A DNA stretch of 32,989 nucleotides from NCBI GenBank assembly GCA_031413675.1, contig JANOFP010000527.1, positions 1-32,989 of the forward strand, given 5' to 3'. How positions within the stretch are numbered: position 1 is the stretch's first letter; every line of letters starts with the position of its first letter. The notes beneath the pieces were generated by a model that saw nothing but the letters and a program-made list of their open reading frames with translations, did not search any database and was not told the DNA's origin. Shown here one piece after another: positions 5,110-32,989 of the stretch. A program made the position numbers and the translations under genes. The DNA is from Bacteroidota bacterium. Lineage in GTDB: Bacteria; Bacteroidota; Bacteroidia; Chitinophagales; Chitinophagaceae.

Positions 5110-6462
5110 TTACGCATTTCCCTCATTTGTATTGCCTGCCTGCCGGTCAGGCGGACCCGGACGTTGCTGGTTCGAATTCGGTGGTCGCTGATTTCTTTGA
5201 TTGGGGTTTTGCCTGTCTCTTTGTTGGTTGGGGTTTTGTCCGCCTCTTTGCTGATTCGGATTATTGCGTGGTGGTCCTTGTGGTCCCTGTGATCTTTGTC
5301 CACCGGATCCTGCGGATTGATTTCCCTGTTGTCTTTGCTGCTGACGTGGTTGCTGCTGTTGCTTTCGTTTACGGTCAGCTCTTTCTAATTGCTGCAAACT
5401 TATCTGTCCTACTACATCCACAAACTCGGGTTCTACTTCTTTGGGTTTAGTACTTGTTATTTCCACTGCTTCCAGTTCGTCGGGTATTACACCCTGTACA
5501 TTCAGCGTTTTTATTTTCTGCACCCGTTCAATCGTAAGTGGATAATGCTTGGTGCTGTCCGGCATAGTGTACCACATCAGGTTTTTAAAAATATCTTTTT
5601 TAATCAGAAAGGCATTGCCTTTTGTAATTTTCAATACATCGCAGTCTTCGGGGAAATGTTGCAATGCATCCAGATAAGTATCGAGTTCATAATTCAAACA
5701 ACATTTTAATCTTCCGCACTGTCCGCTAAGCTTTGTTTGATTGATTGATAAATTCTGATAACGGGCCGCTGTTGTATTTACACTTTTAAATTCGGTGAGC
5801 CATGTACTACAACACAATTCACGACCACAACTTCCGATGCCCCCGACTTTAGCACTCTCCTGCCTTGCTCCAATCTGACGCATTTCCACTTTTACTTTAA
5901 ACTCACCGGCATATACTTTTATCAATTCACGAAAATCCACACGGCCTTCGGCTATATAAAAAAAGGTTGCCTTACGTCCGTCGGCTTGCATCTCCACTTC
6001 ACTTATTTTCATGTTTAGTTTCAGCTGCTTTGCAATTGCACGGCTACGTATCACGGCTTCTTTCTCTCTTGCTTTATTACTGCGCCAGGTATCTACATCT
6101 CTGTCATTTGAGCGGCGAAGAATTTTTTTCATCTCTTTGTCATCTTCTTTTACACCATGCCTTTTCATTTGTAACCGAACAATCTCACCTGTCAAAGAAA
6201 TTTCACCCAAATCAAAACCACTTACACCTTCTACCGAAACCATATCGCCTTTTTCGTATTCATGCAATGTAGTATTTCTAAAAAAATCTTTGCGGCTACC
6301 GTTATTAAAACTTATCTCCACCACTTTACATTCATCACCAGCGTCGGCAACAGGAAGGTTGCGCAGCCAGTCATGCGTATTCATGCGGTTGCATCCGCCA
6401 GAACTACATCCGCCGTTGCTTTTACATCCACCTGGTTTTGTACCACAACTACCGCAAGCCAT
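5110..6462 (-). CDS. ricT: PSP1 domain protein (YaaT/RicT family) with a Cys-rich N-terminus and a Q/N/R/P-rich C-terminal tail
   Basis: The N-terminus is CGSCGTKPGGCKSNGGCSSGGC. PSP1-type Cys motifs CGRELCC and CGRLKCCLNYE are present. It lies downstream of holB, as in many bacteria. Confidence 0.9.
   Translation of the reverse strand: MACGSCGTKPGGCKSNGGCSSGGCNRMNTHDWLRNLPVADAGDECKVVEISFNNGSRKDFFRNTTLHEYEKGDMVSVEGVSGFDLGEISLTGEIVRLQMKRHGVKEDDKEMKKILRRSNDRDVDTWRSNKAREKEAVIRSRAIAKQLKLNMKISEVEMQADGRKATFFYIAEGRVDFRELIKVYAGEFKVKVEMRQIGARQESAKVGGIGSCGRELCCSTWLTEFKSVNTTAARYQNLSINQTKLSGQCGRLKCCLNYELDTYLDALQHFPEDCDVLKITKGNAFLIKKDIFKNLMWYTMPDSTKHYPLTIERVQKIKTLNVQGVIPDELEAVEITSTKPKEVEPEFVDVVGQISLQQLERADRKRKQQQQPRQQQRQQGNQSAGSGGQRSQGPQGPPRNNPNQQRGGQNPNQQRDRQNPNQRNQRPPNSNQQRPGPPDRQAGNTNEGNA
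5135..5155. repeat. 21-nt GC hairpin element, copy inside the ricT CDS (encodes PDRQAG)
   Basis: CCTGCCTG-CCGGT-CAGGCGGA matches the radA copy at 19/21 positions. Confidence 0.75.
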
Positions 6463-6548
6463 TCGTTATTTAATATTTATTAATTGAAAATTTTAAATTG
6501 AAAAGAACCCTGATATTTTTCAACCAGTTTTCGCTTACAATTTTTTTT

Positions 6549-6792
6549 GAGGGGGAGCCAGCGCAGTTACTACTATCATCGCCTGTTGTCTTCGAATCTT
6601 CCGGTGGAAGATTATCTCACTTGTTGCGTTCAGAAAAGGACTGAACAATTTTGAGACTCTTGTATTTTGCTGAATAGACTTGATTCAGTACAAGAGTGCG
6701 ACGCAACGGAAGCTTAATATATAGACGAACGATGACTCAATAATTACAACCTGAACTATGTGGAAACACCATCTAGTGCAGGCCTCCAACTC
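6549..6792. ncRNA. Candidate structured RNA or non-coding element of unknown class between holB and ricT
   Basis: The block is ~45% GC (hand count) inside an otherwise AT-rich spacer and contains no ORF. A closing helix pairs 6549-6559 with 6781-6792. Nested hairpins lie at 6595-6613, 6628-6646, 6656-6697 and 6756-6776. No known RNA family was recognised. Confidence 0.3.
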
Positions 6793-6801
6793 ACATCTCA
6801 C

Positions 6802-6825
6802 AACCTGTCTGCCGACAGGCAGGTT
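6802..6825. repeat. GC hairpin element, intergenic copy 16 nt downstream of the holB stop, flanked by CAACTCA/CATCTCA and CCACTCA heptamers
   Basis: AACCTGTCTG-CCGA-CAGGCAGGTT forms 10 bp, with one T:G position. Confidence 0.7.
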
Positions 6826-6840
6826 CACCACTCACATCCC

Positions 6841-8070
6841 TCAATCTGCCAAAAGTACTATTTTGTTTTTAATGATATGATATAGTTTAATGGTAAGGGC
6901 ATGGAAGAGCATTTTGGCGTTGGCATTGCGTTCTATATAATAAACCGCCCTGTCAAGCTCCTCTACTATAGCCTGTTGCTGGCTGATGTCGGCTATTTTA
7001 TTAATTCGGTTTGCAAAATCATTTTCAGAGCTGTCAGTGGCTTCAATACCTATGGGGCTGGTGATGCGCAAATGAATACTTTGTTCTAACAGGTGATTAA
7101 AATAGCGGAGAAACTGTTTTTGTTTTTCCCTGCCAAGCCTGCTTATCTCTTCCACCCATTTAGTTTGAGCAGCTGGCCCCGTTTTTAAAATTGCATTCAG
7201 CCAGTCCCGTAATAAACTTTGCCAATCTTCATCGGCATGTTGTAATTGCTGTAAAGCATCCCGGTAATTTCCATCGCTTGTTGCCGCTACCTGCCTTGCT
7301 TTATTCGCATCGGTATTGTTTCTGTTTATCAGTGCATCTGCTATATCCTTTGTTTCAAGCAATGGAATTTTCACCAATTGACATCTCGATACGATTGTTG
7401 GTAGAATTAAGGATTCATTTTCTGCAACCAAGATAAATAAAGTATTGGGTGGCGGCTCTTCAATAATCTTCAACAATTTGTTTCCTTCTTTTTCCAGGTA
7501 CTCGGGCATCCAGAGAATTAATATTTTATAGGGGCTTTCAAAACTTTTCAGACTTAGTTTCTTAATAATGTCATTGCATTCAAGTGCCGTTATATTTCCT
7601 TGCTTGTTTTCTGCTCCTATAAACTGAAGCCAGTCATATATATTTCCATAAGGGTAGCCTTTTATAAATTCTCGCCACTCGGTTATATAATCTGTACTGA
7701 TAGGTGGTTTGCCCGATTTGTTTGTTACAACAGGATAGGAAAAATGAATATCAGGATGAACGAGTTCATTTGCTTTTTTACAACCGGAGCAAATGCCGCA
7801 GGAATCTGAAGGTGAGTGGTGAGTGGTGAGTGATGAGTGTGAAGGCTCATCTCCAAACAAAGAAGGTTCTGAGTGCTGATTGCCGACTGCTGACTGTTTG
7901 TCGCCAGTTTTTTCGCAAACAACATACTGGGCAAATGCAAGAGCAAGCTGTAATGCACCACTTCCTTCTTTACCTAAAAACAATAATGCATGAGCCAGCC
8001 TGTTTGTTTGCATCATATCAGCTAATTGATGCTTTACGTTTTGTTGTGCTATGATAGAAGAAAATTGCAT
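6841..8070 (-). CDS. holB: DNA polymerase III subunit delta' (clamp-loader AAA+), carrying a 28-aa repeat-derived insert
   Basis: The N-terminus has AHALLFLGKEGSG. A zinc-module CGICSGC is followed by HPDIHF, and the SRC motif TIVSRCQ is present. The gene is adjacent to ricT. Confidence 0.85.
   Translation of the reverse strand: MQFSSIIAQQNVKHQLADMMQTNRLAHALLFLGKEGSGALQLALAFAQYVVCEKTGDKQSAVGNQHSEPSLFGDEPSHSSLTTHHSPSDSCGICSGCKKANELVHPDIHFSYPVVTNKSGKPPISTDYITEWREFIKGYPYGNIYDWLQFIGAENKQGNITALECNDIIKKLSLKSFESPYKILILWMPEYLEKEGNKLLKIIEEPPPNTLFILVAENESLILPTIVSRCQLVKIPLLETKDIADALINRNNTDANKARQVAATSDGNYRDALQQLQHADEDWQSLLRDWLNAILKTGPAAQTKWVEEISRLGREKQKQFLRYFNHLLEQSIHLRITSPIGIEATDSSENDFANRINKIADISQQQAIVEELDRAVYYIERNANAKMLFHALTIKLYHIIKNKIVLLAD
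7813..7896 (-). repeat. Two-part heptamer-array module in frame in holB (4 x CAGTCAG-type, a 28-nt spacer, 4 x CCACTCA-type)
   Basis: On the plus strand the units are TGAGTGG x2, TGAGTGA and TGAGTGT (7813-7840), and CTGAGTG, CTGATTG, CCGACTG and CTGACTG (7869-7896). The 84 nt equal 12 x 7 and correspond to codons 59-86 exactly. Confidence 0.8.
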
Positions 8071-10919: not shown

Positions 10920-12314
10920 TTAAAACAATAATTTATATACTTCTTCTACCGTTCCCATTGTAATTACTTCAATGCCTGCCTGCCGGTCAGGCAGGTTGAA
11001 TTTTTGTTTCCCAATTCCTTTCTGGTTGTATTTAGAAATAATAATTTTTTCAAATCCCAATTTTTCTGCTTCAGCAATTCTTTGTTCTATCCTGTTTACT
11101 GCTCTGATTTCTCCGCTCAATCCAACTTCGCCAGCAAAACAAATTTGCTGAGTTAGCGGCGTATCATCATAGGAAGATAGCAATGCACAAATAATAGCAA
11201 GGTCAGTTGAAGGGTCTTCTACTTTTAATCCACCGGCAATATTTAAAAAAACATCTTTTACACCAAAATGAAATCCCCCTCTTTTTTCCAGTACAGCAAG
11301 CAATAGCTGCAGTCTTCTTAAATCGAAACCACTTACTGTTCTTTGCGGTGTACCATAAACTGATTGTGTAACCAATGCCTGCACTTCTATTAATAAGGGT
11401 CGCATTCCTTCCATCATTGCTGCTATAGCAATACCACTTAAATTTTCTTCTTTTTGTGTAATTAAAATTTCACTGGGGTTTAAAACTCCCCGCATTCCTG
11501 CATCTGTCATCTCATAAATACCTAATTCCGAAGTGCTGCCAAAACGGTTTTTAAGTGTTCTTAAAATCCGGTATGCGTGATGACGATCGCCTTCAAATTG
11601 TAAAACCGTATCCACCATATGCTCAAGAATTTTTGGACCAGCTATACTGCCATCTTTAGTTATGTGGCCAATTAAAAAAACAGGAGTATTCGTTTCTTTT
11701 GCAAACCGTTGAAATTCGGATGTACATTCTCTGATTTGCGATACACTGCCAGGCGATGATTCAATATAAGGCGTCTGTAATGTTTGTATAGAATCAATGA
11801 TTACTAACTGCGGTTTTAATTTTTTTATTTCCTGAAAAATAACCTGTGTGGATGTTTCTGTAAGCAGATAAAATTTTTCATTCTTTAATTGCAATCTGTC
11901 TGCACGCATTTTAATCTGCAACTCACTTTCTTCGCCACTTATATAAAGAACAGTTGTGTCCTTCATCCATAACCCGTTTTGTAAAAACAAAGTTGATTTG
12001 CCAATGCCCGGTTCGCCAGCAACTAAAACAATACTACCCGGAACAATGCCTCCACCTAACACACGATTTAATTCAACATCCGCTGTTAGCAATCTTTTTT
12101 CTCCAGTTGTTATTATTTCATTTAATTGAATTGTTCTTTCAGTTCGGGGTTCAGCATTATAATCCTTCCATCCATTATTATTTTTAGTTGTATCCTTCTG
12201 AATTATTTCTTCTACAAATGTATTCCACTGACTACAAGAAGGACATTGACCTGCCCATTTAACTGTCTCATATCCGCAGTTCTGACAAAAAAAACTTGTT
12301 TTCACTTTACTCAT
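10920..12314 (-). CDS. radA: DNA repair protein RadA/Sms
   Basis: It has the zinc finger CQNCGYETVKWAGQCPSC, Walker A GEPGIGKST, a KNRFG motif and a Lon-like C-terminal domain. Confidence 0.95.
   Translation of the reverse strand: MSKVKTSFFCQNCGYETVKWAGQCPSCSQWNTFVEEIIQKDTTKNNNGWKDYNAEPRTERTIQLNEIITTGEKRLLTADVELNRVLGGGIVPGSIVLVAGEPGIGKSTLFLQNGLWMKDTTVLYISGEESELQIKMRADRLQLKNEKFYLLTETSTQVIFQEIKKLKPQLVIIDSIQTLQTPYIESSPGSVSQIRECTSEFQRFAKETNTPVFLIGHITKDGSIAGPKILEHMVDTVLQFEGDRHHAYRILRTLKNRFGSTSELGIYEMTDAGMRGVLNPSEILITQKEENLSGIAIAAMMEGMRPLLIEVQALVTQSVYGTPQRTVSGFDLRRLQLLLAVLEKRGGFHFGVKDVFLNIAGGLKVEDPSTDLAIICALLSSYDDTPLTQQICFAGEVGLSGEIRAVNRIEQRIAEAEKLGFEKIIISKYNQKGIGKQKFNLPDRQAGIEVITMGTVEEVYKLLF
10975..10995. 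repeat. 21-nt GC hairpin element, perfect copy inside the radA CDS (encodes LPDRQAG)
   Basis: CCTGCCTG-CCGGT-CAGGCAGG has 8-bp perfect arms. It has the same orientation and reading frame as the ricT copy. Confidence 0.8.
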
Positions 12315-20054: not shown

Positions 20055-20906
20055 TTATTTCAATTCGCTTATTCTTTTCTCCACTTCCTGTTTCCAGTCT
20101 GGTCTTTTTATAAGAATCAGACTTTTATTATACCAGTCAATAGCTTCTTTTTTTTTCCCTGTCATCGCATAAACATCTGCGAGTTTTAGAATTGCATCAA
20201 GATTTGACGGTTCTAAACTGTTCACTTTTTTCAACCGGTCAAATGCTTTTTCATATTGTCCGGAAAAAATAGATGCATCCGCCAGGGTCATCAGAGCATA
20301 AATGTTTGTACTGTCTTTAGTTAGCACTCCCATTATTTTTTGAATTCCTTCCATCGGTGTTTCTGAAATTCCGCCATAAATATGGCTAATTCCCAGTTCC
20401 ACTTTTGATGAATCATTGGAAGGATTTATGCTCAAAGATCTTTCGTACAGCTCTTTTGCCTGAAGAGCTTTCCATTTTCTTTTTTTTGGGTCAGTTTCCT
20501 GTCTTAAACCCTCTAAAAATAAACGGGCAGCAAAAATGAGGTTTTTTTCTGAACTTTCCAATCTTGCTGCTTGTGCCTCGTACCAGGAATATGGTTCAAA
20601 AGCCTGAGCTGAATCACTCCAAAAATGTGAAAGTTGATGATAAATTTTTAATTGTTGATCTTTTATAGCCCCCCGACTGATAGAATTTTCCAATTGTTCC
20701 AAACGCAAACCCTGTTCAGCAGTGATTCTTAATTTTGCTTCTGCAAGCATACTGTCTTCATTATAAAAGGAAGCTGCTTTAATTGCTGACAAATTCCCAG
20801 TTTGTGTTGCAGAAGATTTTTTAGTTTTTTCGGTTTTACCAAAAAAGTATAATAAGGCAACTAAACAGATGCCAGCAAAGGCTGTAATAAATTGAGGTCT
20901 TTTCAC
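20055..20906 (-). CDS. Tetratricopeptide-repeat protein with an N-terminal membrane anchor
   Basis: The start is GTG. It has one N-terminal hydrophobic helix and TPR-like helical repeats. It sits between hup and rng. Confidence 0.75.
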   Translation of the reverse strand: MKRPQFITAFAGICLVALLYFFGKTEKTKKSSATQTGNLSAIKAASFYNEDSMLAEAKLRITAEQGLRLEQLENSISRGAIKDQQLKIYHQLSHFWSDSAQAFEPYSWYEAQAARLESSEKNLIFAARLFLEGLRQETDPKKRKWKALQAKELYERSLSINPSNDSSKVELGISHIYGGISETPMEGIQKIMGVLTKDSTNIYALMTLADASIFSGQYEKAFDRLKKVNSLEPSNLDAILKLADVYAMTGKKKEAIDWYNKSLILIKRPDWKQEVEKRISELK

Positions 20907-29174: not shown

Positions 29175-29486
29175 GTTTTCACGTAGCGATCGCAAAATAG
29201 AAGCAATTCAGCCGGGCACATAAAAAAACCGGCAAAAAACTTACCGGCTGGTGATTTTAATTATTGTGGACCTGAAAAGGGAGCATTGCACAGGTTTGGA
29301 TTCTTTCAAGGGTAATTCAAAAATAATTCCGGACATAAAAACGGGACATTTCAATACAATAATAGATGGCATAAACCGCTGAAGGTTGTGTTGACAAAAA
29401 TTTTTTAACAAATTCATTTCTGTTACCTTGCGCCACTGTTTTTAAAAAGCATTTGATGATTGATTAACTTTGAAAAAAAATTGATA

Positions 29487-31352
29487 GTGCAGGATAAAAT
29501 TCTTTTATTGCCCGATAATATAGCCAACCAAATAGCTGCCGGTGAAGTAATTCAACGGCCAGCAAGTGCTGTAAAAGAATTATTGGAAAATGCGGTAGAT
29601 GCGGGAGCTACTGAAATAAAATTGATTGTGGCTGATGCAGGAAAAGCGTTGATTCAGGTGATAGATAATGGCGGAGGCATGAGTGAAACCGATGCAAGAA
29701 TGTGTTTTGAACGTCACGCCACATCGAAGATTGAAACCATTGAAGATTTATTTCATATTAAAACAATGGGCTTTCGGGGAGAAGCATTGGCTTCTATTGC
29801 AGCCGTAGCGCAGGTAGAATTGAAAACAAAAAGAGCAGATGATGAAACCGGAACTTATATTGAAATTGAAAACAGTTTTGTAAAAAAACAAGAACCTATT
29901 GCAGCACCTACCGGCACCAGCATTGCCATGAAGAATTTATTTTTTAATGTGCCTGCCCGTCGAAATTTTTTGAAAAGTAATGCTGCCGAGATGCGGCATA
30001 TCGTAGATGAGTTTATACGGGTGGCACTTGCATTTCCAGAACTTTTTTTTTCGCTTACGGCAAACAATCAGCAACTGATGCATTTAGATGCCGGTAGTAT
30101 GAAGCAACGCATAATTCAGGTGCTGGGAAATAATTACAATGCAAAACTGGTAGCTGTAAAAGAAGAGACGGACTATATGAATATTTCAGGCTTCGTTGGT
30201 AAACCTGAAACAGCAAAGAAGACAAGAGGTGATCAGTATTTTTTTGTAAACAACCGGTTTATTAAAAGTGCTTATCTCAATCATGCCGTAATGAGTGCAT
30301 ACCAGGAAATGATTGCAAAAGATAGTTTTCCGATGTATTGTTTGTTTATTGATCTTGACCCGGCAGTAGTGGATGTAAATGTGCATCCGACAAAACAGGA
30401 AATAAAATTTGAAGATGAAAAAATTATTTATGCGTTTGTTCAGGCTGCAGTAAAGCATGCATTGGCACAGTTCAGCATTTCTCCTACATTGGATTTTTCA
30501 TTGAATGCCGATATACAACAATTGCCTTCCGTACAGCAACCATTTACAAAAGAAAAAGAATCATCAGCAGCCTCAACTTCCTTGTTTAAAGAATTTACAC
30601 AAAAAAACCAGGCACATTTTATAGAGAAAAATGAATTGAAGCATTGGAAAGATTTGTATGAAAGCAATCAGCAATCAGGAGTCAGTGGCCAGCAGTCAGC
30701 AATCAGCAGCCAGGGAAATGATCAACGTTCAATTGAAGAAAATCCTTCTGGATTTAAGAGTCTGCTTGCCACTCACGACTCACCACTCACCACTCACAAC
30801 ACTCAACTACATAATCAATTTATTATTGCACCTACTCCGTCTGGTTTCATTCTCATCGATCAGCAGGCGGCACATGAAAGAATTATTTATGAACGATTGC
30901 TGAATGCCTCAAAAGATAAACCCGTAACAACACAGCGAAGCATTTTTCCAATAACGATTGAATTAACTCCTGCTGATGCCGTTCTTATTGATGAGTTGAA
31001 AACCGAATTGCAATTACTTGGATTTTTGATTGAACCTTTTGGGAAAAATACTTTTGTAGTACAGGGTACACCTGCCGATGTACCGCAGGGAAATGAAAAA
31101 CAGGCAATCGATTCTTTATTGGAACAGTTCAAGCATTTCAGCAGCGACATAAAATTTTCGAAACGAGAAAAGCTGATTCGTTCACTTGCATGGCATCAAT
31201 CTATAAAGGCAGGCACTTCATTAACAGAAAAAGAAATGAAAGGTTTGATCGATGATTTGTTTCAATGTGCTACTCCCAATGCAACTCCCGGTGGCAGTCC
31301 TACTTATTTAGAGTTTAAGAAAGATCAGTTGGAGAAAATGTTTGGCAAGTAA
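29487..31352 (+). CDS. mutL: DNA mismatch repair protein MutL, with a repeat-derived linker insert
   Basis: It has the GHKL N-terminus LLPDNIANQIAAGEVIQRPASAVKELLENAVDAGA, DNGGGM and a C-terminal dimerisation domain. The start is uncertain: GTG 29487 places LLP at residues 7-9 as in other MutL proteins, and the alternatives are TTG 29460 and TTG 29481. Confidence 0.9.
   Translation: MQDKILLLPDNIANQIAAGEVIQRPASAVKELLENAVDAGATEIKLIVADAGKALIQVIDNGGGMSETDARMCFERHATSKIETIEDLFHIKTMGFRGEALASIAAVAQVELKTKRADDETGTYIEIENSFVKKQEPIAAPTGTSIAMKNLFFNVPARRNFLKSNAAEMRHIVDEFIRVALAFPELFFSLTANNQQLMHLDAGSMKQRIIQVLGNNYNAKLVAVKEETDYMNISGFVGKPETAKKTRGDQYFFVNNRFIKSAYLNHAVMSAYQEMIAKDSFPMYCLFIDLDPAVVDVNVHPTKQEIKFEDEKIIYAFVQAAVKHALAQFSISPTLDFSLNADIQQLPSVQQPFTKEKESSAASTSLFKEFTQKNQAHFIEKNELKHWKDLYESNQQSGVSGQQSAISSQGNDQRSIEENPSGFKSLLATHDSPLTTHNTQLHNQFIIAPTPSGFILIDQQAAHERIIYERLLNASKDKPVTTQRSIFPITIELTPADAVLIDELKTELQLLGFLIEPFGKNTFVVQGTPADVPQGNEKQAIDSLLEQFKHFSSDIKFSKREKLIRSLAWHQSIKAGTSLTEKEMKGLIDDLFQCATPNATPGGSPTYLEFKKDQLEKMFGK
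30662..30717 (+). repeat. Eight tandem heptamers (AAGCAAT CAGCAAT CAGGAGT CAGTGGC CAGCAGT CAGCAAT CAGCAGC CAGGGAA) in the mutL linker
   Basis: The 7-nt periodicity is seen directly. The array encodes QQSGVSGQQSAISSQG. Confidence 0.8.
30769..30810 (+). repeat. Tandem heptamers CCACTCA CGACTCA CCACTCA CCACTCA (then degenerate CAACACT CAACTAC) in the mutL linker
   Basis: Seen directly. It encodes THDSPLTTHNTQL and uses the same unit as the holB array and the holB 3' flank. Confidence 0.8.
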
Positions 31353-31462: not shown

Positions 31463-32797
31463 TTAATACTTATTGCGGATTGACTGGATAAATTTTTCGA
31501 CAGCACGCCGCACTGCGATAGCAGAAGCTTGATGATTATTTATCAAAACAGAAAAAAGCAATTGCTTTCCTTTTTTGGTAGTAAGAAAACCGCTGAGTGC
31601 AACAACACCGCTTAGTGTTCCGGTTTTTGCATAAATAAATCCGCTGTCGGTTTTATAATAACTGCTGATTGTGCCCTCACCACCTGTAGGAAAAATTTCT
31701 TTGATGCGGTTCATACCAAATTCATTTTTCATCTTATTTAAAATGGCAACAAAATCCTGTGGAGTAAATAAATTATAGCGGCTCAGACCGGAACCATCCA
31801 CCCATCTTGGTTTTTGTGGCAGGTCTTTAAAATCTGTTTTTAATAATGTGTCAATGATCTTTTCATCATTCATTACACCGAGCAGTTCATTGCTTACCAT
31901 TAATAAACTTTGCTCTGCAAAAAAATTATCACTGCGGTGCATCATGGGTTTGAGGAGGGAGTCGGTGGGTTGGGAATGGATGACTTTAAAATTATTTCTG
32001 TTAGAATAAATACCTGTTCGAACTTTTTTATGAATTGTGTCACCAAGTATTTCGATATAGACTAATCCACTAGTGGGTCTAAAAGGGGCTCGTATTGTTT
32101 TACTACCATTCCCTGGTCCATAACACCCAATTAAATATTTATTCTCAAATACATCAAATTTTTTTATTGATTTAAAAACCCTACATTGAATATCAGTCAC
32201 GATATTATTTTCGAAAATTCTCGGTATAGAAGATACTTTCCCTGTATCATTAACTGAAAAAGTCACAAGATTGCCATAAACAGGAAACTCAGACCTGGGG
32301 ACTAAGTATGTTTCACTCACATCATTAATTTGCCATCCATTTCCATAAGGAAATCTATAATTCGTTTCATATGGTGCCAAAACAGCTACATTCAATCCAG
32401 TAGTGTTTAAGAAATTATAAACTGGATGAACTTTAAAATCAGGATGCAAAAAAGTAGGGTCGCCGTTAGGTTTAAAGGATATACTCGAGTCATTATCGTT
32501 TAAATACCTCAACCCCACCAAACTATCTCCCAAATATTTCATCGCTACATAGCAGGCAGGGATTTTTGTATTACTCGCAGGCACAAAATATTTTTCACCA
32601 TTATAATTATACCAGTATTTGTTTTCTCCGGGTTCGTAAATGCTGATGCCAACATGTGCTGTGAGCAATGAAGAATCTTGTAAAACAATTTCTTTTGCTG
32701 ATCTGGAGATTTGTTTTGTGATATTGCATGAAGCGAGCAGCAAGAGACAAGTAGCGAGTGGGAGAAAGCAGCGGGCTTTTAATTGAATAGTGAGCAT
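31463..32797 (-). CDS. dacB: D-alanyl-D-alanine carboxypeptidase/endopeptidase (PBP4, peptidase S13), lipoprotein
   Basis: It has SxxK (ASNTK), an SxN-type motif (HRSDN), KTG (AKTGT) and the lipobox LLLLASC. Confidence 0.85.
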   Translation of the reverse strand: MLTIQLKARCFLPLATCLLLLASCNITKQISRSAKEIVLQDSSLLTAHVGISIYEPGENKYWYNYNGEKYFVPASNTKIPACYVAMKYLGDSLVGLRYLNDNDSSISFKPNGDPTFLHPDFKVHPVYNFLNTTGLNVAVLAPYETNYRFPYGNGWQINDVSETYLVPRSEFPVYGNLVTFSVNDTGKVSSIPRIFENNIVTDIQCRVFKSIKKFDVFENKYLIGCYGPGNGSKTIRAPFRPTSGLVYIEILGDTIHKKVRTGIYSNRNNFKVIHSQPTDSLLKPMMHRSDNFFAEQSLLMVSNELLGVMNDEKIIDTLLKTDFKDLPQKPRWVDGSGLSRYNLFTPQDFVAILNKMKNEFGMNRIKEIFPTGGEGTISSYYKTDSGFIYAKTGTLSGVVALSGFLTTKKGKQLLFSVLINNHQASAIAVRRAVEKFIQSIRNKY

Positions 32798-32816
32798 TGA
32801 ATATTGAGTATTGAAT
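32782..32816. repeat. Five tandem heptamers ATTGAAT AGTGAGC ATTGAAT ATTGAGT ATTGAAT spanning the dacB start codon
   Basis: Seen directly. The start codon (CAT on the plus strand, 32795-32797) straddles units 2 and 3. Confidence 0.7.
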
Positions 32817-32827
32817 ATTTCTTATTT

Positions 32828-32859
32828 AGCAAATTTGCACATCAGCATATTAGCACATT
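32828..32859. repeat. Four tandem octamers AGCAAATT TGCACATC AGCATATT AGCACATT
   Basis: Seen directly. The last unit overlaps the stop codon of the gene fragment at the window end. Confidence 0.65.
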
Positions 32860-32989
32860 AACTCCTCTCCTGAGCCCTCAGCCACCGCTCCGGTATTTCA
32901 TTACTACTGGCTAGTAAATAATCCTTATAACTGCAGGCAATAAATCGTTTATCGGGTAGTTGCATCCACCATCTTCCTGTTTTTTTGCT
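32858..32989 (-). CDS. C-terminal fragment of an unidentified protein, cut by the window edge
   Basis: The frame is open from the window edge to TAA 32858-32860 and reads ...SKKTGRWWMQLPDKRFIACSYKDYLLASSNEIPERWLRAQERS. I recognised no family. Confidence 0.3.
   Translation of the reverse strand, partial: SKKTGRWWMQLPDKRFIACSYKDYLLASSNEIPERWLRAQERS

Follow-up and report, generated by a model that had tools for sequence, protein, structure and literature searches.

Heptanucleotide repeats in the putative linker arms of an old, predicted disordered loop of Chitinophagaceae DNA polymerase III delta'

Introduction

The holB gene on contig JANOFP010000527.1 of a Chitinophagaceae bacterium (assembly GCA_031413675.1; the whole stretch analysed, 32,989 nucleotides, is called the window) encodes a DNA polymerase III delta' subunit with two short arrays of tandem heptanucleotides, in frame, in its zinc module. 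These arrays are probably heptamer repeats in the style of short tandemly repeated repetitive (STRR) sequences, filling the linker arms of an old disordered loop around a conserved PSLFG[DE] core. The interpretation rests on the periodicity of the DNA, the ancestry of the loop, the conservation of its core, the turnover of its arms, a family-wide excess of period-7 repeats and predicted disorder, each documented below; from these we infer the mutational mechanism and the role of the arms as linkers. An initial annotation, made from the sequence by eye, had described the block instead as a 12 x 7 = 84 nt module inserted in frame.

A family-wide loop in the zinc module of delta'

The identity of the gene is borne out by Pfam, in which family PF13177 matches the 409-aa product of the open reading frame (ORF) with E=2e-38. 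The product also matches the E. coli gamma and delta' structures, and among 8000 homologs scored, those with a source name are annotated as delta'. The translation contains a degenerate P-loop (GKEGSGAL in place of GxxGxGK[ST]), an SRC motif (IVSRCQ) and the zinc-module cysteines C52 and C91-G-I-C94-S-G-C97; PF13177, degenerate P-loop, SRC motif and a CxnCxxCxxC zinc module are the marks by which delta' (HolB) is recognized. A literature search on the function of the delta' zinc module and on STRR unit sequences gave nothing usable. The features of the gene are as follows.

6841-8070, minus strand: holB (DNA polymerase III delta'), 409 aa, from the ORF and Pfam PF13177
7807-7905, minus strand: clade-specific, predicted disordered loop, residues 56-88, GDKQSAVGNQHSEPSLFGDEPSHSSLTTHHSPS, between Cys52 and DSC91GxC94xxC97, from comparison and AlphaFold2
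7869-7896, minus strand: upstream heptamer array, CAGTCAG CAGTCGG CAATCAG CACTCAG, encoding QSAVGNQHS, the upstream arm, from Tandem Repeats Finder (TRF)
7843-7866, minus strand: conserved core PSLFGDEP, at the centre of the 28-nt 'spacer' (7841-7868), from residue and codon counts
7811-7840, minus strand: downstream heptamer array, ACACTCA TCACTCA CCACTCA CCACTCA CC, encoding HSSLTTHHS, the downstream arm, from TRF

The loop is an old, family-wide extra segment of about 30 aa in Chitinophagaceae delta'. It is present in all 37 closest database homologs aligned (70-95% identity) and in 80/80 species-representative loci from GTDB genomes, nearly all of them labelled Chitinophagaceae or Chitinophagales (family loci are numbered L001-L086, database homologs carry names such as P0024, and WIN denotes the window sequence). 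The loop is absent from E. coli gamma, where query residues 55->89 align to chain positions 73->78. When representatives clustered at 50% identity were searched exhaustively, most Bacteroidota delta' proteins at 35-48% identity proved to be 370-385 aa long with a short loop, CENKxxx-DSCG, which makes the roughly 30 extra residues specific to this clade. The claim of a loop longer than usual by about 30 aa therefore holds against both E. coli gamma and most Bacteroidota delta', though the extra segment comprises residues ~56-88 (7807-7905) and not codons 59-86. Given the family alignment, AlphaFold2 assigns residues 58-71 and 73-85 a predicted local distance difference test (pLDDT) score <50 and no secondary structure; the loop is thus predicted to be a disordered segment that loops out of the zinc module.

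A second variable loop occurs in the same protein at residues ~336-347 (window 7030-7065), with pLDDT <50 at 339-346. In relatives, arrays of heptamers or inserts resembling palindromes, up to ~30 aa in length, occur in it, for instance at L063 11044-11067 and L079 1633-1661 and in P0043, P0048, P0059 and P0117. In L063 and L079, the unit AACAACG is common to this second loop and to the zinc-module loop of the same gene.

Heptamer arrays flank the centre of the loop

Read on the coding (minus) strand from 7896 to 7813, the 84-nt block consists of CAGTCAG CAGTCGG CAATCAG CACTCAG, then AACCTTCTTTGTTTGGAGATGAGCCTTC, then ACACTCA TCACTCA CCACTCA CCACTCA, exactly as first written out, and corresponds to holB residues 59-86. 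TRF finds period 7 in both flanks, with 4.1 copies at 95% match in 7811-7839 and 4.0 copies at 80% match in 7869-7896, and both are tandem head-to-tail 7-nt repeats of at least 3 copies, as expected of heptanucleotide simple sequence repeats (SSRs) or STRR-like sequences. The lag-7 autocorrelation of the block is 47/77, compared with 19.8±3.9 after shuffling of codon order and 24.6±3.7 after synonymous redrawing with the peptide fixed; 0/20,000 replicates reached 47 in either control. Because synonymous redraws never reproduce the observed value, the periodicity belongs to the DNA itself and is not a consequence of the peptide. Over the whole window, five lag-7 regions were found versus none for lags 4, 5, 8, 10, 11 and 13. 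The description of the flanks as DNA-level heptamer arrays of STRR style stands on both the TRF and the lag-7 evidence, and its codon-preserving control is passed with high significance.

Other parts of that description need revision. Only two adjacent units were said to be identical, but in the phase CACTCAC there are 3 identical adjacent units within a 22-nt perfect tract. The 12 x 7 arithmetic of the module has no natural basis either, as its boundaries are arbitrary and its spacer is not made of heptamers; from one array to the other, the CACTCA cores are separated by 36 nt, which is out of 7-nt phase.

The core between the arrays is conserved as protein

The '28-nt spacer' turns out to be the conserved element, PSLFG[DE], and the arrays the variable part. 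Over 65 species, conservation within the core amounts to P 41/65, S 60/65, L 63/65, F 65/65, G 58/65 and D/E 60/65, while the codons used for these residues include all four TCN Ser, six Leu, both Phe and four Gly codons. Fixed residues encoded at saturated synonymous sites indicate purifying selection on the core at the protein level, and it is for this reason that the spacer is regarded as the functional core and the arrays as its flanks. The motif is retained, as (S)LF(G), in orthologs from which all zinc-ligand cysteines have been lost (L074, L078, P0024, P0122, P0124 and P0128). Its role therefore seems to be independent of zinc binding.

In established clamp-loader structures, the N-terminal face of delta' is directed towards the clamp. 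In E. coli, delta and not delta' opens the clamp, by means of an L-F pair. PSLFG shares S-L-F with the last three positions of the beta-clamp-binding consensus QL(S/D)LF (PMC9690074), and it sits on a predicted flexible tether in a clamp-loader subunit. However, while S-L-F is kept in 60-65 of the 65 species, positions 1-2 of QL[SD]LF are x-P in the holB core, with P at position 2 and no conserved Q-L, and the motif is internal rather than terminal. The likeness to the clamp-binding consensus may serve as a lead.

Turnover of the arms among orthologs

Each arm has a median length of 14 aa among the 65 species, with ranges of 11-18 and 11-22 aa. In a codon-shuffle test applied to each arm (p<0.01), at least one arm is lag-7 periodic in 32/65 species, the upstream arm in 16/65 and the downstream arm in 26/65; the same test at other lags is positive in 3/65 (lag 5), 2/65 (lag 6) and 0/65 (lag 8). 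Some orthologs have arms without any periodicity. The ortholog comparison, in which the initial annotation had seen a possible refutation, therefore cuts both ways: the loop is ancestral and lacks periodicity in half of the species, whereas the periodicity itself is significant and recurs in 32 of them. A homologous loop present throughout the family (80/80 orthologs), and non-periodic in half of it, refutes a recent insertion, and with it the description of the block as an inserted module.

Where arrays are present, their units vary. Upstream arms with CAGTCRR-type arrays are found in L001, L018, L025, L029, L031, L032, L035, L049 and L081-L085. Downstream arms contain at least 7 different unit types across orthologs, including CCTCAAA (L001, L019, L039, L042, L049 and L059), CGACTCA (L002 and L014), ACTACCA (L015), GGGATCC (L054), CCGAAAT (L012, L018, L025, L032 and L056), GACAACR (L016 and L079) and CAGCAAC (L028, L050, L055 and L063).

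Units are exchanged even between close relatives, as is apparent when the DNA of six of them (L081-L086) is aligned with the window. WIN, L081, L082 and L086 have four CACTCAC-type units in a downstream arm of equal length. The corresponding arm is CTCTGAA x3 in L084 and CCAACAT x4 in L085, and in L083 it is L084-like with an additional 21-nt palindrome, CCTGCCTGCCGGCAGGCAAGG, which is translated in frame to NLPAGRQG. In a neighbour-joining tree of the rest of the holB gene, L086 is the outgroup and L082-L085 group as a subclade at ~90% nt identity, which implies an ancestral CACTCAC array and at least two replacements of it within L082-L085. The heptamer-derived codons CCA CTC ACC ACT CAC CAC TCA are identical in L082, L086 and WIN despite ~21% nt divergence, so the periodicity is maintained at the DNA level. 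Arms can also differ entirely within protein clusters of at least 90% identity, as in cluster 9, where they read RRQSSAGNQQ, KDKSETSNA, NPKSQISNSS and TDHGRQTTSTS. The view of the arrays as 'frozen' fails on this swapping of unit families, and the holB arrays are neither frozen nor a mobile cassette. The 55-aa members of one protein cluster, considered as frameshift-truncated holB alleles, were rejected as an unrelated protein brought in by a clustering artefact.

The loop also accommodates GC-rich hairpins of the form CCCTCTCC-N3-6-GGAGAGGG, another small repeat class tolerated there. These are in frame in the holB loops of L009, L024 and L022, with the peptides PLPSERGSGGE, SLPQERGPGGE and PSPGGEG, respectively. 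Such hairpins lie at ~4196-4215 in L009, at ~1048-1067 in L022 and at ~17987-18005 in L033, the last just beyond the end of the mutL match in that locus. A GGGGTGAGG-like tract is found near the hairpin in L009, L024 and L033.

Period-7 arrays across the family

Heptamer arrays are not confined to holB. A TRF survey of 1.31 Mb (80 loci and the window), controlled with block-shuffled sequence, gave the following numbers.

Period 7: 136 arrays observed, 3.3 on average in shuffles
Period 8: 35 arrays observed, 8 on average in shuffles
Period 9: 58 arrays observed, 12 on average in shuffles
Period 10: 18 arrays observed, 19.7 on average in shuffles
Period 11: 32 arrays observed, 28 on average in shuffles

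Period 7 is thus over-represented relative to its neighbours in the DNA of the family, and periods 10 and 11 are at chance level; periods 14 and 21 add another 33 and 15 arrays, respectively. By ORF-based coding calls, which are approximate, 80 of the 184 arrays of period 7, 14 or 21 (43%) lie outside ORFs of at least 120 aa, compared with 11% of random 30-mers, an enrichment of ~4-fold. The other 104 are inside long ORFs, the holB arrays being among these intragenic cases. Intergenic arrays are frequently inverted pairs. Certain units, such as CACTCAC, CAGTCRG and GGAGCCN, recur across genes and species. Clustering of units at <=1 mismatch, with rotation and reverse complement allowed, was abandoned when random controls collapsed as well, and exact-unit counts were used in its place. 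A metagenome scan for (CCACTCA)3 produced at least 120 matches on contigs of 38-72% GC, a span that shows the unit not to be taxon-specific.

The initial annotation had drawn attention to the same orientation of the arrays in mutL and holB. This orientation, like a shared frame, is forced and carries no information. Over each 21 nt, translation passes through all three frames of a heptamer array, so its coding strand must be free of stops in each of them, and since the reverse complements TGAGTGG and CTGACTG contain TGA, only the CCACTCA / CAGTCAG orientation can code. Among the matches listed from metagenome contigs, 55/55 (CCACTCA)>=3 arrays located in ORFs are sense-oriented; stops occur on both strands in 39/61 intergenic period-7 arrays. 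The same frame is automatic, since every frame yields the same string of 7 aa, cyclically permuted.

Several observations do not sit easily with local, ongoing repeat dynamics in the arms. All 7/7 loop sequences in the window's cluster of at least 90% identity have equal length and differ by substitutions only, so no gain or loss of a unit was caught directly. The arm lengths of relatives differ by 3-9 nt, never by multiples of 21, and the replacements are therefore not explained by the simple gain or loss of 3 units. The arm SPLTTHHSP is spread widely though patchily among distant relatives, which could reflect selection on that sequence. Identical-unit pairs number 134 across genes and species versus 15 expected, part of the surplus being orthology, and such reuse could point to copying from a shared repertoire or to selection on units, not purely to local slippage. 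The sharing of units between holB and mutL within genomes is weakly elevated (p=0.04), and the coding calls, as noted above, are approximate.

The mutL interdomain linker

The unit types of holB were said to occur in mutL as well, and TRF confirms this.

29460-31352: mutL, from the ORF and the expected three Pfam domains
30663-30713, plus strand: upstream heptamer array of the mutL linker, AGCAATC / AGCAGTC / AGGAGTC types, from TRF
30769-30806, plus strand: downstream array of the mutL linker, CCACTCA CGACTCA CCACTCA CCACTCA CAACACTCA, from TRF (30769-30797, 4.1 copies, 90% match)

In about 25 loci, mutL is found at a distance of 7-10 kb from holB. The N-terminal part of the interdomain linker is conserved, and the variable part, in which many species have paired arrays, follows ELKHWKDFYE, or ELKHWKDLYE at the upstream array of the window. 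Orthologs have GAGTCNG / GAAGTCN arrays at the position of the upstream array, and at that of the downstream array units such as CACACCT, CGGACTT and TCAGACC are found in other species. For example, the linker contains a GGAGGTC-type array followed by (ACTCACC)3.9 at 100% match in L050, a GAGTCAG-type array followed by CACACCT in L025, and a GAAGTCC-type array followed by its reverse complement CGGACTT in L017 and L044. No conserved core is present between the arrays among mutL orthologs. The likeness of the holB and mutL spacers was not taken for homology: by inspection it comes down to CCTTCT and a scatter of other matches, and orthologs do not conserve the mutL segment. Without a conserved mutL core, the likeness does not argue for a cassette common to both genes. 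The 6-mers that holB and mutL have in common number 81 within genomes versus 57.9±12 between genomes (the p=0.04 given above), the window having the highest value of 21 genomes with 19 shared 6-mers.

Upstream of the variable heptamer region, MutL has a family-conserved linker motif, SxS[IL][FY]KGFTQK.QAHFIE (residues ~358-377, window ~30530-30590), the S-L-F of which resembles the holB core.

Small palindromes and the array downstream of holB

An array also borders holB at its 3' end.

6783-6840, minus strand: GTGAGNN array (the reverse complement of the CACTCAC type) directly 3' of the holB stop, from the alignment of relatives
6804-6823, no strand assigned: perfect palindrome of 20 nt, CCTGCCTGTCGGCAGACAGG, cleanly inserted in comparison with close relatives, from the post-stop alignment

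L081, L082 and L086 have an uninterrupted post-stop array, TGAGGGATGTGAGTGGTGAA joined directly to TTGTGAGATGTGAGTTGG, and in the window CCTGCCTGTCGGCAGACAGG is inserted between GTGAA and TTGTG of this array. Similar post-stop arrays are present in L017, L018, L035 and L049. A hairpin flanked by array units had been noted downstream of holB (6787-6834). The array flanks are confirmed, and the hairpin itself is better described as a 20-nt palindrome indel that splits the GTGAGNN array. A terminator scan does not class the post-stop palindrome, which has no T run, as a canonical intrinsic terminator, and the region folds no better than shuffles (z=+0.2).

A near-identical palindrome occurs in frame in holB of L083 and mutL of L048 and between genes in L042. 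Its 20/21-nt sequence, CCTGCCTGYCGGCAGRCA(A)GG, is located at ~2031-2051, ~20622-20642 and ~11469-11488 in these three loci, respectively. Unlike the arrays, the 20/21-nt palindromes show clean presence or absence between close relatives; they look like a tiny mobile or recurrently generated element with a preference for heptamer arrays. A perfect palindrome of 16 nt, CCCGATAGCTATCGGG, recurs without change at four independent sites distributed over five species: in mutL of L001 (~11595) and L002 (~12678), where it is read in two frames, as LPIAIG and PDSYRE, and in intergenic DNA of L032 (~11552), L049 (~2139) and L059 (~11410). A variant with T runs, CCCGATAGCCATCGGG, appears three times in L078 and is terminator-like in look. 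Both CCTGCCTGYCGGCAGRCAGG and CCCGATAGCTATCGGG are found in identical form in different genes, reading frames and species.

Other repeat sites in the window

An AT-rich array of AATTNTT, with 4-5 units, lies at 6482-6504 between holB and the downstream PSP1-domain gene. It is found at the orthologous position in at least 13 species, among them L012 (9651), L014 (9711), L017 (7105), L025 (11506), L031 (11419), L032 (11545), L054 (11439) and L059 (11447), and may be a conserved leader or promoter-region element. The PSP1-domain gene itself (5110-6462, minus strand) encodes a Q/N/P/G-rich C-terminal tail with period-27 and period-9 repeats at 5197-5299, and apparently orthologous ORFs contain period-21 repeats in L008 (12963), L012 (10842), L026 (12594) and L050 (12568). 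A further heptamer array, ATTCAAT / ACTCAAT, with 5.4 copies at 32782-32819, straddles the predicted start of an S13 D-Ala-D-Ala carboxypeptidase gene (31463-32797, minus strand). A period-8 array of TTAGCACA lies upstream of it, at 32826-32860.

Alternative explanations

A discrete array-spacer-array cassette of 84 nt, inserted in frame in holB with a sister copy in mutL, is very improbable. The loop is indeed extra relative to most Bacteroidota delta', the two genes have their unit types in the same order and show the highest 6-mer sharing of the genomes compared, and small palindromes do behave as discrete insertions in the same loops. Nevertheless, every family ortholog has the loop, its centre is conserved as protein while the arrays vary, and the mutL spacer is neither conserved nor recognizably homologous to the holB core. 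The arbitrary block boundaries, the lack of a common 7-nt phase, and an orientation and frame that are forced also speak against a unit of insertion. Presence or absence of a whole unit with discrete ends was not seen among the orthologs, only the arms varying; there is no other complete array-core-array copy in the window, where mutL shares the units and not the core. Selection on the arrays as nucleic acid, in the form of protein binding sites, pausing elements or secondary structure, much as others have proposed for TAACTGA repeats or G-rich heptamers, has more to commend it and is still improbable. DNA-level periodicity persists across ~21% nt divergence and a restricted set of units recurs; reverse-complement arrays in mutL of L017, L044 and L015 could pair, intergenic arrays are often inverted pairs, and an orthologous AATTNTT array precedes the PSP1 gene in at least 13 loci. 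Against this, the units at orthologous holB positions differ completely between species and half of the species have no array. RNA/DNA folding of the holB block is no better than that of shuffles (z=+1.0 and +0.5), the mutL region is weakly structured (z=-1.4), and there is no Rfam family match anywhere in the window.

Slippage by 7 nt could in principle make a contingency locus, reversibly frameshifting holB or, more plausibly, mutL, in which case it would act as a mutator switch. The unit length is not a multiple of 3, the mutL linker is a conceivable switch point, and relatives contain perfect tracts at 100% match, with 3.9 copies in mutL of L050 and 4.1 copies in holB of L027. A precedent is the phase variation mediated by heptanucleotide repeats in Haemophilus (PMC2651432). 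The tracts here, however, are only 3-4 units long, and close relatives are all in frame, with no frameshifted allele seen; the seven loop sequences of the window's cluster belong to 409-aa proteins without exception. In addition, holB is an essential single-function gene, and switching it off would be lethal. Such a switch is hardly credible for these genes. That the periodicity arose through selection for a peptide that is repetitive or of low complexity, such as PLTTHHS, is extremely unlikely as well. Arms resembling SPLTTHHSP recur in distant relatives and the arms are uniformly polar, yet synonymous redraws fail to reproduce the periodicity, the 7-aa peptide repeat is present only ~1.3 times, and relatives keep the exact heptamer-derived codons where the protein-selected core shows full synonymous scatter.

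Relation to known repeats

STRR heptamers were reportedly described in heterocystous cyanobacteria by Mazel et al. in 1990, with the units CCCCAGT, TTGGTCA and CAACAGT. The present arrays resemble them in their tandem head-to-tail 7-nt units, in the several unit families per genome and in their many copies, which here are enriched between genes. In contrast to the cyanobacterial repeats, they belong to another phylum, the window's units CACTCAC and CAGTCRG are not the cyanobacterial ones, and they are in frame in essential genes with unit turnover at orthologous sites. An array of (GTCAACA)n in holB of L032 and L049 has a unit that is a rotation of CAACAGT, which is a lead only. Rickettsia palindromic elements (RPEs) are said by Ogata et al. 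(in 2000) to be 100-150 bp long, to have a defined consensus and to occur in frame in protein genes. In both systems, surface loops of essential proteins accommodate repetitive DNA in frame and gain new peptide segments from it, and the 16-21-nt palindromes in holB and mutL of relatives act as discrete in-frame insertions in the RPE manner. The holB block of the window, unlike an RPE, has no palindrome and is not a discrete insertion.

In the work by Mrazek, Guo & Shah (2007), as it is summarised in PMC4679880 and PMC4692102, heptanucleotides are the most abundant class of long SSRs in most genomes studied, polymerase slippage favoured at 7 nt being proposed as the cause, and multiple-of-three units are reported to be the most likely ones in coding regions (PMC4679880). 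The excess is of the same kind here, where period 7 is by far the commonest, and the difference is that non-multiple-of-3 units recur inside two housekeeping genes. To our knowledge, Chitinophagaceae have not been described in this heptanucleotide long-SSR work of Mrazek (2007). Direct repeats of TAACTGA, for which a regulatory role is proposed, are known from Beggiatoaceae, Cyanobacteria and five Bacteroidetes; most of them lie immediately 5' of start codons, and stop codons in one orientation restrict their placement relative to genes (PMC4679880). These too are heptamer arrays in Bacteroidetes with an orientation limited by stops, though they consist of a single unit, whereas the arrays described here have many units, are intragenic and show no link to start codons. 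The combination of in-frame linker use in essential genes, unit turnover at orthologous sites and a conserved delta' loop appears not to have been described before.

A model for repeat-filled linker arms

The reading favoured here, that STRR-like repeats fill the arms of an old disordered loop, suggests the following course. The PSLFG[DE] core would be tethered by two arms of ~14 aa, the sequence of which would be essentially unconstrained. A family-wide mutational regime may make and homogenise tandem heptanucleotide repeats in the manner of STRR-like long SSRs, and the arrays would accumulate wherever sequence is free to vary, which is preferentially between genes but also in the arms of the holB loop and in the MutL interdomain linker. 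Inside genes, changes would have to pass several filters: the arm would change by a multiple of 3 nt, the strand that is stop-free in three frames would alone be permitted, giving the C/A-rich orientation, and the encoded 7-aa cyclic peptide would be polar and flexible. Units are likely swapped through slippage-driven concerted evolution, through ectopic conversion from arrays in the same genome, or both.

A bolder version is that the arms, far from being local microsatellites in decay, are continually rewritten from a limited, family-wide repertoire of heptamer units and 16-21-nt palindromes (such as CCTGCCTGYCGGCAGRCAGG and CCCGATAGCTATCGGG) that spread by self-copying from locus to locus, and that PSLFG is a clade-specific clamp-binding-like motif. 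It is doubtful as a whole. If it were true, a system of micro-elements would be writing new coding sequence into the tolerant loops of essential genes, and through PSLFG the delta' of Chitinophagaceae could contact the beta clamp, or a different replisome partner, directly.

Implications

Essential genes are expected to lose repeats whose unit length cannot be divided by three. In this family such repeats would instead constitute recurrent, renewable linker material in two replication and repair genes throughout. The case may offer a natural system for how repeat dynamics generate and replace linker sequence without breaking the frame, for the degree of sequence variation that a tethered short linear motif can bear, and for the cause of the bacterial preference for 7 nt. 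For annotation, low-complexity inserts of this kind in Chitinophagaceae proteins are to be taken as genuine and not as assembly artefacts. Finally, the zinc module of delta' in these bacteria contains a previously unremarked conserved PSLFG loop.

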